This document shows, piece after piece, positions 25,149 to 40,671 of a DNA stretch of 64,000 bases; position 1 is the stretch's first letter; each line of letters starts with the position of its first letter. This DNA is from Escherichia coli O127:H6 str. E2348/69 (GTDB taxonomy: Bacteria; Pseudomonadota; Gammaproteobacteria; Enterobacterales; Enterobacteriaceae), in assembly GCF_000026545.1 (NCBI RefSeq), contig NC_011601.1; one strand, written 5' to 3'. The translations under genes and the position numbers were made by a program. The notes beneath the pieces are model-generated. The model saw only the letters and a list, made by a program, of their open reading frames with translations, did not search any database and had not been told where the DNA came from.

Positions 25149-26278
25149 TATGCGCCCTCCCCAAGACCAGCAGCGATAGCGTCGCCAATGGCTTTCAGCG
25201 CCTGTTCAGCATCTGCACCCTGGGCGGTAAAGCGTAGGCGATGACCTTTCTTAACGCCAAGTGCCACAACTTTCATCAGACTACGTCCGTTTGCCGGTTT
25301 GCCGGTGCCATCAAGGTTTGTCACGGTAATATCACTGTTAAATTGTTTAATGGTATTGACCAGCATGGTACCTGGACGAGCATGCAGGCCGTGTTCATTG
25401 CGCACCACAAACTCCGCGCTTAACACGTCGTCGGTCGGCGCATCATCGCTGGTCAGCAGCGCCAGCAACGTTGCCGCATCCGCTTTCAGCAAGCGGTCAG
25501 CTTTATTATCGAGCAACAAATCAGCGAGACGCTTAAGAACCGCGATGGGCTGATCGTCATTCATCGCCACACTCACCAGCATGGCTGCCGTTTCGCCGTC
25601 CACATCAAAAGCATTTGCCGCACGGCTTACCGCAATCGCGCTACGCAGATTGCCTTCGGCGCTATCGCTCAGCCAGATACCCTGCCCGAGGTTCAGCGGT
25701 TGTTCATTGATGGCTTTGGTGACGAAAGTGGCGTCAACTGCCCCCGCTTCTTTCAGACGCGCAGCGTTCAGCGCCTGAAGAGTCAGCAGATCGCTGGCGA
25801 CGATATCCAGCGTCAGCATTTCGTTGTCGAGCTTCAGCTGCTCACTCTGCTTTTCGCCCATCAGCAATGCGCGAAGTTCTTCTGCTGTTGTTGCTGACTT
25901 CAGTTGTTCAGCAACGGAATCATCGCTCAGTACGTGGGTCAGCTGGCGTAGCAGGCCCAGATGTTCATCCGAGCTGGCAGCAATACCGATCGCCACGTAC
26001 GCTACCTGGCCGTCACCCCAGGTGACGCCTTCCGGGAACTGAAATACCTGAACGCCGGTTTTCAGCACCTGATCGCGGGTGTCGGTAGTGCCGTGTGGAA
26101 TAGCAATACCATTGCCGAGGAACGTTGAGGTTTGCTGTTCGCGCGCCAGCATGCCATTGACGTAGCCTTCAGCTACATTACCGGCCTGCACCAGCGCCGC
26201 AGCGACCTGGCGAATCGCCTCTTCTTTGTCTCCGGCCTTTTCGCCCGGATGGATGTCCTGTACGGATAACTGGAACAT
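25148..26278 (-). CDS. fruB: Fructose PTS EIIA-FPr fusion FruB
   Basis: 376-aa ORF with N-terminal EIIA-like and C-terminal HPr-like ([11 protein letters not shown]) domains; matches FruB. Confidence 0.95.
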
Positions 26279-26292
26279 AGTTCTCCTCTCTT

Positions 26293-26313
26293 GCTGAATT
26301 GAAACGATTCAGC
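26293..26313. promoter_or_regulatory. Cra (FruR) operator in fruB control region
   Basis: gctgaattgaaacgattcagc contains a TGAATCGTTTCA-type Cra half-palindrome just upstream of the fruB ATG. Confidence 0.55.
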
Positions 26314-26362
26314 TTCTATGAGAAAAAAGCGCCAACCTGGCTTAGGGTTAAAGACAAGATCG

Positions 26363-26376
26363 CGCTGAAACGTTTC
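26363..26376. promoter_or_regulatory. Cra (FruR) operator
   Basis: gctgaaacgtttca matches the Cra consensus GCTGAAACGTTTCA. Confidence 0.6.
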
Positions 26377-26644
26377 AAGAAAGCATAATACTTTTGTTTC
26401 AGCACGCAAGGAAAGCCGTAAAGTTATGAGCAAAAGTTTGATGTGCTGCACAATTTTTTGTCATTTTTCCTAATTGCTGATGGGAAAATCCGTTATCAGC
26501 AATTTCATTTCAGCAGCGTCAGCAGCCAATCAGCAACAGTGAAATGGCATTTTGATTATTCGTGGCGCTTTTGATTTCGCTGTCTGTTTATTTTCTGACA
26601 AGCAGCGTAAACTCCGCGTCTTCCTCTTCCAGTGATCGACCAGC

Positions 26645-27826
26645 ATGCATAACTCCCCCGCAGTCACCAGCGCGAAATCGTTTGACCTGACCTCGATGGC
26701 GTTTTTAATCGTTGCCTTTCTCACCGGTATTGCGGGCGCTCTGCAAACCCCGACACTCAGTATTTTTCTTACTGATGAAGTACATGCCCGTCCGGCGATG
26801 GTGGGATTCTTCTTTACCGGCAGCGCAGTCATTGGGATTCTGGTGAGTCAGTTTCTCGCCGGGCGCTCTGATAAGCGCGGCGATCGCAAATCGCTGATTG
26901 TCTTTTGCTGCCTGTTAGGCGTGCTGGCCTGCACCCTTTTTGCCTGGAATCGCAACTACTTTGTTTTGCTATTCGTTGGCGTCTTTCTTAGCAGCTTTGG
27001 CTCGACCGCTAACCCGCAAATGTTTGCCCTTGCCCGTGAACATGCCGACAAAACCGGACGTGAGGCGGTGATGTTCAGCTCTTTTTTACGCGCTCAGGTT
27101 TCACTGGCATGGGTCATTGGCCCACCGCTGGCTTATGCCTTAGCGATGGGTTTCAACTTTACGGTAATGTATCTGAGCGCAGCGGTAGCGTTTATTGTTT
27201 GCGGCGTGATGGTGTGGCTGTTTTTGCCGTCGATGCAAAAAGAGCTTCCGCTGGCGACCGGCACGGTTGAAGCGCCGCGCCGTAACCGTCGCGATACGTT
27301 GCTGCTGTTTGTCATTTGTACATTGATGTGGGGCTCGAACAGCCTGTACATCATCAACATGCCGCTATTTATTATCAACGAACTGCATCTTCCCGAGAAA
27401 CTGGCCGGTGTGATGATGGGGACCGCCGCCGGGCTGGAAATCCCGACCATGTTGATTGCCGGATATTTTGCCAAACGTCTAGGTAAGCGCTTCTTAATGC
27501 GCGTTGCTGCCGTGGGTGGCGTCTGTTTTTACGCAGGAATGCTGATGGCGCATTCACCTGTCATTCTGTTGGGCTTGCAGCTGCTAAATGCTATTTTTAT
27601 TGGCATTCTGGGCGGCATCGGGATGCTCTATTTTCAGGATTTGATGCCCGGTCAGGCAGGTTCAGCCACCACGCTCTATACCAACACGTCGCGCGTGGGC
27701 TGGATCATCGCAGGATCAGTGGCGGGCATCGTCGCCGAGATCTGGAATTATCACGCTGTGTTCTGGTTTGCGATGGTGATGATTATCGCCACTCTGTTTT
27801 GCTTACTGCGAATTAAAGATGTTTAA
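26645..27826 (+). CDS. setB: Sugar efflux transporter SetB (MFS)
   Basis: 393-aa 12-TM MFS ORF matching SetB. Confidence 0.9.
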
Positions 27827-28077
27827 GGCGCGGTCAGCATTTCCAGATCGATAAGCCAGGTCATTGCCTGCTGACGCGAGTTACCGCACATTTCAGCGCT
27901 GGCTTGTAAGCCTGCACAGACTTTCGGTCGCAGTGGCGAGGTGAAAATTTTACAGCGTTGCTGTTCATCAAGCTGAATGCAGGGCGTATTGGCGGGCTTG
28001 CCATCTGGCATACCGGGAATAGGGCTGGAAATTGAAGGGGCAGTGCAACACGCCCCGCAACCCGGACGGCATTCCAT
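27823..28077 (-). CDS. yeiW: Cysteine-cluster protein YeiW (UPF0153)
   Basis: Frame 27823-28209 trimmed to [45 protein letters not shown]... (84 aa); Cys-rich; stop overlaps the setB stop convergently. Confidence 0.8.
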
Positions 28078-28231
28078 ACGTTGTTCTCTTAAGGTTAACC
28101 ACCGGATTGATGAGCGCGCACAGTACCACCTTTTTTGCACCAGCAAAAGTGCGAATACCACTTGCCCGAAAGGCCCGTCGCGAGTACTTTGTCGCGATAT
28201 TTTTGACATTTTTGACTACAGGAATTTTTCG

Positions 28232-28804
28232 ATGCCAAGAGCGAACGAAATTAAAAAAGGTATGGTACTGAATTACAACGGCAAACTGCTGCTGGTTAAG
28301 GACATTGATATTCAGTCGCCCACTGCCCGCGGTGCCGCTACGCTGTACAAAATGCGTTTTTCTGATGTCCGTACCGGGCTGAAAGTAGAAGAGCGTTTCA
28401 AAGGTGATGATATCGTTGACACCGTGACGCTGACCCGCCGTTACGTTGACTTCTCCTATGTCGATGGCAACGAATATGTCTTTATGGATAAAGAAGACTA
28501 TACCCCGTATACCTTCACCAAAGATCAGATTGAAGAAGAGTTGCTGTTTATGCCTGAGGGCGGCATGCCGGACATGCAGGTGCTGACCTGGGACGGTCAA
28601 TTGCTGGCGCTTGAGCTGCCGCAGACCGTTGATCTGGAAATCGTTGAAACTGCACCAGGCATCAAAGGGGCATCTGCCAGCGCCCGTAACAAACCGGCGA
28701 CATTGAGCACTGGTCTGGTGATTCAGGTACCAGAATACTTAAGCCCGGGCGAAAAAATTCGTATCCATATCGAAGAACGCCGTTATATGGGTCGTGCTGA
28801 CTAA
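28232..28804 (+). CDS. yeiP: Elongation factor P-like protein YeiP (EfpL)
   Basis: Frame 27977-28804 trimmed to [30 protein letters not shown]... (190 aa); EF-P fold. Confidence 0.92.
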
Positions 28805-28820
28805 CTTCAGCCGCATGCAG

Positions 28821-28850
28821 AAAAGGGATAGCTCAGGCTGTCCCTTTTTT
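28821..28850 (+). terminator. Rho-independent terminator of yeiP
   Basis: aaaaggga-tagctcaggctg-tccctttttt hairpin plus T-tract directly after the yeiP stop. Confidence 0.6.
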
Positions 28851-29026
28851 AATTTATTATACCAATCTTCTATTTTGCGCTTCCTGAACACCTTACGCCC
28901 GCAATTTTCACTCGTTGATTGATCGCCCTCACACTTCATCGCATTAACAATCCAGACCAATTTCAATTGTTGTCATATAACTTTACACTGTCATTGTTAA
29001 TTAATCGTTACTAAGACGTGACTCCT

Positions 29027-30493
29027 ATGAATACAATCGCCTCCGTTACGCTCCCGCATCATGTACACGCTCCACGATACGATCGACAGCAGTTGCAATC
29101 ACGTATCGTTCATTTTGGCTTTGGAGCCTTTCACCGCGCACATCAGGCATTACTGACCGATCGTGTGCTGAATGCCCAGGGCGGCGACTGGGGGATCTGT
29201 GAAATCAGCTTGTTCAGCGGCGATCAACTGATGAGCCAACTCCGCGCACAGAACCATTTATATACCGTGCTGGAGAAAGGTGCGGACGGCAATCAGGCGA
29301 TAATTGTCGGTGCCGTTCACGAATGTCTGAATGCAAAACTGGATTCCTTAGCGGCAATTATTGAGAAATTTTGCGAGCCACAGGTGGCAATTGTTTCCCT
29401 GACGATTACCGAAAAAGGCTATTGTATTGACCCGGCCACCGGTGCACTCGACACCAGCAATCCGCGTATTATTCACGATCTACAAAACCCTGAAGAACCT
29501 CACTCCGCGCCAGGTATTCTCGTCGAAGCACTGAAACGCCGCCGTGAGCGCGGCCTTACACCGTTTACCGTGCTCTCCTGCGACAATATTCCCGACAATG
29601 GCCATGTGGTGAAAAACGCGGTGCTGGGAATGGCAGAAAAACGTTCGCCAGAACTCGCCGGGTGGATAAAAGAACACGTCAGTTTTCCGGGAACTATGGT
29701 CGACCGCATTGTTCCGGCTGCAACCAACGAATCACTGGCGGAAATAAGCCAGCATCTGGGGGTGAATGATCCCTGCGCAATTAGCTGCGAACCGTTTATC
29801 CAGTGGGTGGTTGAAGATAACTTCGTCGCTGGGCGTCCTGCCTGGGAAGTCGCAGGTGTACAAATGGTGAATGATGTCCTGCCATGGGAAGAGATGAAAC
29901 TGCGGATGCTTAATGGCAGCCACTCTTTTCTCGCTTATCTGGGTTACCTCTCAGGATTCGCCCATATCAGTGATTGCATGCAGGATCGCGCATTTCGCCA
30001 TGCTGCCAGAACATTAATGCTGGATGAGCAAGCGCCGACACTGCGGATTAAAGATGTCGATTTAACACAATATGCGGATAAGTTAATTGCACGTTTTGCT
30101 AATCCGGCACTGAAACATAAGACCTGGCAAATCGCGATGGATGGCAGCCAAAAATTACCGCAACGCATGCTGGCAGGTATTCGCATACATCTGGGGCGCG
30201 AAACGGACTGGTCGTTGCTGGCATTAGGCGTTGCAGGCTGGATGCGTTACGTCAGCGGCGTTGATGATGCCGGAAATGCCATTGATGTTCGCGATCCGCT
30301 TAGCGATAAAATTCGTGAACTTGTTGCGGGCAGCAGCAGTGAACAACGCGTAACCGCCCTGCTTTCCCTGCGTGAAATTTTCGGTGATGATCTGCCAGAT
30401 AACCCGCATTTTGTGCAGGCCATCGAACAAGCCTGGCAACAAATCGCACAATTCGGCGCGCATCAGGCGCTATTAAACACCCTCAAAATTTAA
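29027..30493 (+). CDS. yeiQ: Mannitol-dehydrogenase-family sugar-alcohol oxidoreductase YeiQ
   Basis: ORF 29018-30493 trimmed 3 codons to MNTIASVTL... (recalled 488 aa); long-chain mannitol/fructuronate dehydrogenase family. Confidence 0.88.
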   Translation: MNTIASVTLPHHVHAPRYDRQQLQSRIVHFGFGAFHRAHQALLTDRVLNAQGGDWGICEISLFSGDQLMSQLRAQNHLYTVLEKGADGNQAIIVGAVHECLNAKLDSLAAIIEKFCEPQVAIVSLTITEKGYCIDPATGALDTSNPRIIHDLQNPEEPHSAPGILVEALKRRRERGLTPFTVLSCDNIPDNGHVVKNAVLGMAEKRSPELAGWIKEHVSFPGTMVDRIVPAATNESLAEISQHLGVNDPCAISCEPFIQWVVEDNFVAGRPAWEVAGVQMVNDVLPWEEMKLRMLNGSHSFLAYLGYLSGFAHISDCMQDRAFRHAARTLMLDEQAPTLRIKDVDLTQYADKLIARFANPALKHKTWQIAMDGSQKLPQRMLAGIRIHLGRETDWSLLALGVAGWMRYVSGVDDAGNAIDVRDPLSDKIRELVAGSSSEQRVTALLSLREIFGDDLPDNPHFVQAIEQAWQQIAQFGAHQALLNTLKI

Positions 30494-39081: not shown

Positions 39082-40671
39082 ATGACGCAAACTCTGTTAG
39101 CGATTGAAAATTTGTCGGTGGGTTTTCGCCATCAGCAAACCGTACGTACAGTAGTCAATGATGTTTCACTACAGATTGCGGCTGGCGAAACGCTGGCGCT
39201 GGTAGGTGAGTCTGGTTCAGGTAAGAGCGTTACCGCGCTGTCAATTTTACGCCTGCTCCCTTGCCCGCCGGTTGAATATCTCTCCGGCGATATTCGTTTT
39301 CATGGCGAATCGCTGCTTCATGCCAGCGATCAAACGTTGCGCGGTGTACGCGGTAATAAGATCGCCATGATTTTTCAGGAGCCGATGGTGTCGTTAAATC
39401 CATTACATACCCTGGAAAAACAGCTTTATGAAGTACTTTCACTCCACCGCGGGATGCGTCGGGAAGCGGCTCGTGGCGAAATTCTTAACTGCCTTGATCG
39501 CGTCGGTATCCGCCAGGCGGCAAAACGGCTGACAGATTATCCGCATCAGCTCTCCGGCGGCGAACGCCAGCGGGTGATGATTGCGATGGCGCTGTTAACG
39601 CGACCGGAATTATTAATTGCCGATGAACCAACCACCGCGCTGGACGTCTCTGTCCAGGCGCAGATTTTACAGCTGTTGCGCGAACTGCAAGGCGAGCTGA
39701 ATATGGGTATGCTGTTTATTACTCATAACCTCAGCATTGTCAGAAAACTGGCCCACCGCGTGGCGGTAATGCAAAACGGTCGCTGTGTCGAGAAAAATAA
39801 CGCCGCTACGCTATTTGCCTCACCCACTCATCCTTACACACAAAAGCTACTCAACAGTGAACCATCTGGCGACCCGGTGCCATTGCCAGAACCTGCCTCA
39901 ACTTTGCTAGATGTTGAACAGCTTCAGGTTGCCTTCCCCATCCGCAAAGGGATTTTGAAGCGCATTGTGGATCATAATGTGGTGGTGAAAAACATCAGTT
40001 TTACGCTACGGGCAGGTGAAACACTGGGTTTAGTGGGCGAGTCCGGTTCCGGGAAAAGCACGACGGGACTGGCGCTGCTGCGACTGATTGACTCTCAGGG
40101 CAGCATCGTCTTTGACGGTCAGCCACTGCAAAATTTAAATCGCCGCCAGCTGTTACCTATTCGTCATCGCATTCAGGTGGTATTTCAGGATCCAAACTCC
40201 TCACTCAACCCACGACTCAACGTTTTGCAAATTATTGAGGAAGGCTTACGGGTTCACCAGCCGACGCTTTCTGCCGCACAACGCGAACAACAAGTGATAG
40301 CCGTGATGCATGAAGTGGGATTAGATCCTGAAACACGCCACCGTTATCCGGCGGAGTTCTCTGGTGGTCAGCGGCAACGTATTGCGATTGCCAGGGTGTT
40401 AATTCTTAAGCCCTCGCTGATCATTCTTGATGAACCAACATCATCACTCGACAAAACGGTGCAGGCGCAAATATTGACGCTATTGAAATCATTGCAACAA
40501 AAGCATCAACTGGCCTATTTGTTTATCAGCCACGATTTGCACGTTGTCCGCGCGTTATGTCATCAGGTTATCGTACTGCGACAAGGGGAAGTAGTGGAAC
40601 AAGGACCGTGCGCGCGCGTGTTTGCCGCACCGCAGCAGGAGTATACGCGTCAGCTACTGGCGTTGAGCTGA
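39082..40671 (+). CDS. yejF: ABC transporter ATP-binding protein YejF (double ATPase)
   Basis: Frame 39034-40671 trimmed to [15 protein letters not shown]... (529 aa); two Walker A sites (GESGSGKS twice). Confidence 0.9.

Follow-up and report, generated by a model that had tools for sequence, protein, structure and literature searches.

Overlaps between convergent genes were described statistically by Lillo & Krakauer (2007, PMC2174442), who found 4 bp to be the modal overlap length, identified CTAA, TTAA, CTAG and TTAG as the tetramers that solve the convergent case, and counted 58 convergent overlaps in E. coli; a rho-independent terminator was predicted in only 20% of the genes involved. 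The setB-yeiW pair has the same configuration as these YTAR overlaps, with no structural difference. It is also among the 165 convergent excludons of MG1655 identified with ExcludonFinder (NAR 2025, PMC12288877), where its overlap was seen in at least 50% of 58 RNA-seq samples, and where excludon pairs in general showed higher synteny. Both the structure of the pair and its classification are already published.

Like other convergent excludons (PMC12288877), the pair consists of convergent neighbours whose transcripts overlap and which have little or no spacer between them. For the characterised excludons, however, reciprocal expression and RNase III processing were demonstrated, whereas setB-yeiW is listed on the overlap of its transcript boundaries. 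Excludons with long 3′ UTRs set by embedded terminators differ further from setB-yeiW, in which it is the coding ends that overlap. A third point of comparison is the programmed collision of RNA polymerases. In vitro experiments indicate that polymerases converging between two genes collide at defined positions only if the nascent RNA forms a stem-loop (Wang, Watters, Ju & Liu, bioRxiv 10.1101/2022.10.23.513370), and setB-yeiW likewise has a stem-loop exactly at the convergent boundary, foldable on both strands.

The window analysed was a 64,000-nucleotide stretch of E. coli O127:H6 str. E2348/69. In it, setB (26645..27826, + strand, 393 aa) ends in ...cga att aaa gat gtt TAA, with its stop at 27824-27826, and yeiW (27823..28077, − strand, 84 aa) ends in ...atg ctg acc gcg cct TAA, with its stop at 27825..27823. 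An earlier note on this DNA had read the two stops as overlapping within ttaa, and the sequence, the ORF list and RefSeq all agree with that reading. The coding sequences share the four nucleotides TTAA (27823..27826, both strands), of which two (27824-27825) belong to both stop codons, and no intergenic DNA lies between the genes. The identical 4-nt overlap is annotated in RefSeq for EPEC E2348/69, to which positions 27300-28300 were 100% identical over the 1 kb compared; the same interval was found at 95% identity or above in 5,413 of 5,426 complete E. coli genomes. The junction is of the YTAR class in that both stops lie inside one CTAA/TTAA/CTAG/TTAG tetramer with the central TA in common, and in that two protein-coding genes, as judged from Pfam domains, orthologues and RefSeq, meet tail to tail on opposite strands. 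The ORF list gives 26645..27826 (+, 393 aa) for setB and 27823..28209 (−) for the yeiW frame; this mechanical ORF extends upstream to 28209, and the start in RefSeq and in the orthologues is 28077.

Among the eight annotated convergent junctions of the window, setB-yeiW was the sole CDS overlap. Six others had gaps of 3, 31, 34, 55, 66 and 138 nt, and the eighth was formed by a pseudogene and tRNA-Pro. YTAR sites numbered 502 in the window, below the counts in shuffled sequences; the tetramer by itself is common, and its count therefore uninformative. What is non-random is the use of a YTAR tetramer as the common end of two conserved ORFs, not the tetramer itself. A near-abutting convergent pair was observed at yejG/yejF (~39769-39775; NZ_CP059840.2 1772420-1772424), also on the ExcludonFinder list (PMC12288877). 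Like setB-yeiW it has virtually no spacer, but its stops, 3 nt apart, do not overlap.

Conservation of the junction was analysed in 80 yeiW loci from species-representative genomes, in each of which the setB homologue and both stops were located; Salmonella was not among these loci, and its case was taken from PMC12902445. The exact 4-nt overlap was found in 40 of the 51 species with a convergent setB-yeiW pair, in genera including Escherichia, Citrobacter, Kluyvera, Pseudocitrobacter, Enterobacter, Kosakonia, Pluralibacter, Superficieibacter, Buttiauxella, Cedecea, Huaxiibacter and Rahnella. Read in the setB orientation, the tetramers of these 40 loci and the window were TTAA (20), TTAG (18), CTAG (2) and CTAA (1), and all four permitted tetramers therefore occur at this junction. 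The geometry is not, on these comparisons, a strain-specific accident. It is this depth of conservation, with all four tetramers in use, together with the natural unlocking cases described below, that the present analysis adds to the published description.

In Rahnella (L062, L071 and L076; 2752-2791), SetB is 12 residues longer than the enterobacterial protein and ends in the same 4-nt overlap. This suggests that the YTAR end point may have been reached independently, or else retained while the length of the SetB tail changed. It also suggests that the YTAR position may serve as a natural stopping point for a convergent ORF extending towards its neighbour.

These data would be accounted for if setB-yeiW were an ordinary, evolutionarily old YTAR tail-to-tail overlap, kept without need of antisense selection, and we consider this reading probable. 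The central TA is used by both stops, and the third base of each stop is the complement of the partner's last wobble base. The overlap would in this sense be 'locked', a change at either central base killing at least one stop. At the outer bases only transitions would be tolerated, as these would be silent in the partner and would interconvert TAA and TAG. A deletion at the junction would cut into a protein, with no spacer to absorb it. The overlap would persist because purifying selection acts on two protein ends, and selection for antisense control would be unnecessary to account for it.

Substitution patterns at synonymous sites were examined in this light. Elsewhere these sites were saturated, with a mean entropy of 1.4-1.5 bits and 47% purines over 103 four-fold columns. 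The wobble base of yeiW Pro84 was T in 17 sequences and C in 18, with no purines, and that of setB Val393 was T in 30 of 30; position 393, whether Val or Ile, had only pyrimidines at the wobble. Purine-free columns made up 5 of the 103 four-fold sites. Each of these two wobbles, at Pro84 and at Val393, is paired on the opposite strand with the third base of the partner's stop codon. Beyond these two stop-linked wobbles, no excess synonymous constraint was detected in the yeiW tail by alignment entropy. In the setB tail, low synonymous entropy was confined to the stop-linked Val wobble and to six columns, the latter probably reflecting a preference for CTG codons.

Several lineages have left the overlap. 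In Entomohabitans (L041), the yeiW stop has changed from TAA to TGA, which destroyed the setB stop and extended SetB by 8 residues, and at locus L053 the yeiW stop has been lost and the overlap enlarged to 13 nt. Elsewhere both stops are intact and separated by a spacer, of 32 nt in Klebsiella indica, 25 nt in K. oxytoca and 19 nt in Citrobacter sp. MGH106; in these three the overlap is broken and both genes are kept. The stop-loss loci and the spacer lineages behave as the locking model predicts. YTAR is the target and duplication site of IS5, and an insertion with a 4-bp duplication would therefore regenerate both stops.

The spacer of Citrobacter sp. MGH106 (L035, 2753-2777) has the sequence AGCCAGTCCCATCAGGCTC and forms, with the adjacent bases, a small 6-bp stem-loop, flanked towards yeiW by CTAG and towards setB by TTAA. 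The spacer resembles an insertion in which the stop-bearing tetramer may have been duplicated. In Salmonella, a horizontally acquired operon, opvAB, lies between setB and yeiW, and both genes are again kept (PMC12902445). The phase-variable opvAB (STM2209-STM2208) sits at the site of the TTAA junction or immediately beside it (PMC12902445). A separate case was observed in the clinical E. coli strain N24 (L084, 1846-2824), in which a deletion spans the junction: setB, lacking its C-terminus, is annotated as a pseudogene, and the 3′ end of the yeiW homologue is altered and overlaps setB by ~95 nt.

The setB-yeiW junction would thus serve as a clean example of a mutationally locked overlap kept across many enterobacterial genera, in which natural variants show each exit: stop loss with protein extension, spacer insertion, and a horizontally acquired island. 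Its importance beyond bookkeeping would be small, since the overlap is in RefSeq, the class has been described statistically since the 2000s, and the pair is in the 2025 excludon map.

The earlier note had further claimed that no room is left for a terminator between the genes and that each transcript must run into the partner's coding region. With intergenic DNA of zero, the first of these stands, and the second follows from the geometry for full-length mRNAs: the tail of every full-length setB mRNA is antisense to yeiW, and that of every full-length yeiW mRNA is antisense to setB. A consensus scan found no classical terminator on the − strand below 27823, past the yeiW stop, and none on the + strand past 27826 until 28177-28198. 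There, a terminator-like hairpin with a T-run (28177..28208, + strand; −10.3 kcal/mol, z −1.5) lies ~350 nt beyond the end of setB, between yeiW and yeiP. We infer it to be a candidate end point of setB read-through after crossing all of yeiW antisense, although the 3′ ends listed from the Term-seq data of Adams et al. 2021 (PMC7815308) include none at this hairpin. Nor do those listed include any labelled setB, primary or antisense, any antisense to yeiW, or any at or beyond the junction. In the data listed from that study coverage was low: 26-27 reads per 800 nt in the absence of bicyclomycin, rising to 81-114 in its presence (PMC7815308).

Base composition differed along the two read-through RNAs. 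GC skew on the + strand was +0.17 to +0.22 over 27720-27839, so that yeiW read-through RNA has more C than G, and +0.27 to +0.32 over 27920-28039, where setB read-through RNA is G-rich. Termination would probably be diffuse. Immediately beyond the yeiW stop the RNA is rich in C and poor in G, which would suit Rho loading once ribosomes leave, and termination of yeiW read-through is therefore probably Rho-dependent. Read-through from setB would probably end further on, near or beyond the 5′ end of yeiW; because its RNA is G-rich over 27920-28039, it may well cross most of yeiW.

Transcripts initiated at the yeiW promoter may often not reach the junction at all. The sole yeiW 3′ end among the Term-seq entries listed by Adams et al. 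2021 (PMC7815308) is internal to the gene, at window position 28033 (−), 44 nt after the start codon. Its read count was 66,368 at OD 0.4 in LB, its intrinsic terminator score was 6.97 (values from 3 upwards point to intrinsic termination), and its Rho score of 1.36 was not significant and was called 'No' (PMC7815308). The position agrees with a terminator-like hairpin inside yeiW (28027..28056, − strand), GGGGCGTGTTGCACTGCCCC followed by TTCAATTTCC, which the consensus scan called at 28056-28037. This hairpin is formed by the G-A-C-C-T-A-P codons, and Escherichia alone retains the wobble pair that strengthens its stem. The element could act as a translation-sensitive attenuator or could just mark a stable decay end. 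In either case, so strong an internal 3′ end means that many transcripts from the yeiW promoter may stop before the junction.

The promoter itself lies in the yeiW-yeiP divergent intergenic region (28078..28231, − strand), YeiP being an EF-P-like protein and the divergent neighbour of yeiW. The region matches the published sequence of 'Promoter 5 (yeiW)', used as a vanillin-inducible promoter (PMC5291986 supplement). In that study vanillin raised yeiW 9-fold and induced the reporter 4.3-fold; yeiW was listed as up and setB was unmentioned (PMC5291986).

Of the alternatives to an ordinary locked overlap, the one that survives best is a functional convergent excludon, in which the overlap would be retained for the repression that transcribing either gene imposes on its partner, whether polymerases collide head-on, RNase III cleaves the sense-antisense duplex, or both. 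The sugar efflux pump and the stress-induced cysteine-cluster protein would then be expressed in a mutually exclusive way. The place of the pair in the MG1655 excludon map fits this reading, but the ExcludonFinder criterion is near-automatic for setB-yeiW because only overlapping transcript boundaries are needed and the coding sequences already overlap by 4 nt. The zero-length spacer does guarantee overlapping 3′ UTRs, the geometry is kept in most of the species with the convergent pair, and excludon pairs have higher synteny as a class; the yeiW tail, however, carries no extra synonymous constraint, the six-column dip in setB is probably codon preference, and in Salmonella, Klebsiella indica, K. 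oxytoca and Citrobacter sp. MGH106 the stops are separated and both genes retained. Interference might still matter under particular conditions, given the vanillin response of yeiW. Against this, the literature searched yielded no pair-specific expression test for setB-yeiW, and neither gene has an entry among those listed in the published p19 dsRNA tables, a weak negative as the method captured few 3′-UTR duplexes. The low coverage and the strong premature 3′ end in yeiW (among the Term-seq entries listed, PMC7815308) also count against it. At such coverage polymerase collisions should be rare. With both genes at low expression, and with many transcripts from the yeiW promoter perhaps ending only 44 nt into the ORF, any mutual interference would probably be weak. 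On balance we regard a functional excludon as unlikely.

The mutual antisense interference that the earlier note considered likely did not find support in the covariation, synonymous-constraint, mapped-end or duplex data, nor in the lineages with separated stops; it is plausible but unsupported. That the overlap is a selected regulatory device of any kind would seem quite unlikely. Less likely again is the specific form in which overlap and hairpin together make up a selected collision/antisense device, such that stress induction of yeiW (by vanillin or aldehydes) down-tunes SetB in cis, and the reverse, with the spacer lineages (Salmonella with opvAB, Klebsiella) uncoupled; we would call this form very unlikely. 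Were reciprocal regulation true, a sugar efflux transporter would be coupled to a cysteine-cluster protein that is stress-inducible and has no assigned function, a consequence of modest and locus-specific interest.

The hairpin invoked in that form was examined separately. Folding identified an imperfect palindrome on the junction (27800..27839, both strands), consisting of TTAA flanked by the final 8 sense codons of setB and by the final 4 full codons, plus one base of the next, of yeiW; it includes the codons for I-K-D-V-stop in setB and for A-P-stop in yeiW. In E. coli the structure is stable, at −16.7 kcal/mol on the setB-sense strand (z −3.8 versus shuffles) and −9.6 kcal/mol on the yeiW-sense strand (z −2.1), and a G+C-rich stem-loop is thus present at the boundary on both strands, with an A/U-rich inner stem. 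Such a hairpin might be a coding-embedded bidirectional terminator, or a collision-positioning stem-loop like that required in vitro, ending both transcripts at the boundary. However, neither tail after the stem, UUUCCAG for setB and AAACAGA for yeiW, is a proper U-tract, and the consensus terminator scan did not call the hairpin. Across 38 sequences 75.1% of cells were pairable, compared with 30-50% in slid controls but 75.2% in column shuffles, and no covariation was found, the score being reached by 80 of 500 shuffles. RNAalifold returned no consensus pairs at the junction, and many genera have only a weak version of the hairpin (−2 to −9 kcal/mol). The Term-seq entries listed (PMC7815308) place no 3′ end at it. 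No Rfam match occurred in 26000-29200 at E ≤ 1, and an inverted-repeat finder with a seed of 6 missed the junction palindrome, reporting only an unrelated GC palindrome at 28111-28122. The hairpin thus differs from bidirectional terminators in lying inside coding sequence, without flanking A/U tracts, mapped 3′ ends or covariation. The level of pairing is explained by the conservation of the protein ends, and the hairpin is probably a by-product of these. A role in ending both transcripts is highly improbable, while the folding energies and the excess of pairing over slid controls may leave some small chance of a local role in Escherichia.

Finally, the overlap could be an annotation artefact, one stop or yeiW itself being mis-called so that two real coding sequences do not meet; the short length of yeiW (84 aa), its unknown function and the alternative upstream start at 28209 would permit this, but the protein evidence makes it almost certainly wrong. 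YeiW matches Pfam CxxCxxCC (E=7e-8), as a YkgJ/CxxCxxCC cysteine-cluster protein, and has orthologues at 65-99% identity across Enterobacterales and even in Burkholderiales, all beginning M-E/D-C-R. Most of these terminate at the same codon, including many from species without an adjacent setB, which upholds the annotated yeiW stop. SetB, a sugar efflux MFS transporter, matches Pfam MFS_1 (E=4.6e-44), and its C-terminus, ...RIKDV*, is kept across genera, also in Klebsiella with separated stops. No internal stop was found in either ORF among the 35 sequences examined.

A further observation was made upstream of setB, in the fruB leader (26300-26380). A very strong 'orphan' 3′ end is among the Term-seq entries listed at K-12 coordinate 2263539, window ~26321 (−), with read counts of 218,310 and 431,335 (PMC7815308). 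It falls after gccaggttggcgctttttt(t)c, ~43 nt before the start codon of fruB, and is flanked by two palindromes resembling Cra (FruR) operators. The 5′ UTR of fruBKA may therefore contain a leader terminator or give rise to a short RNA.
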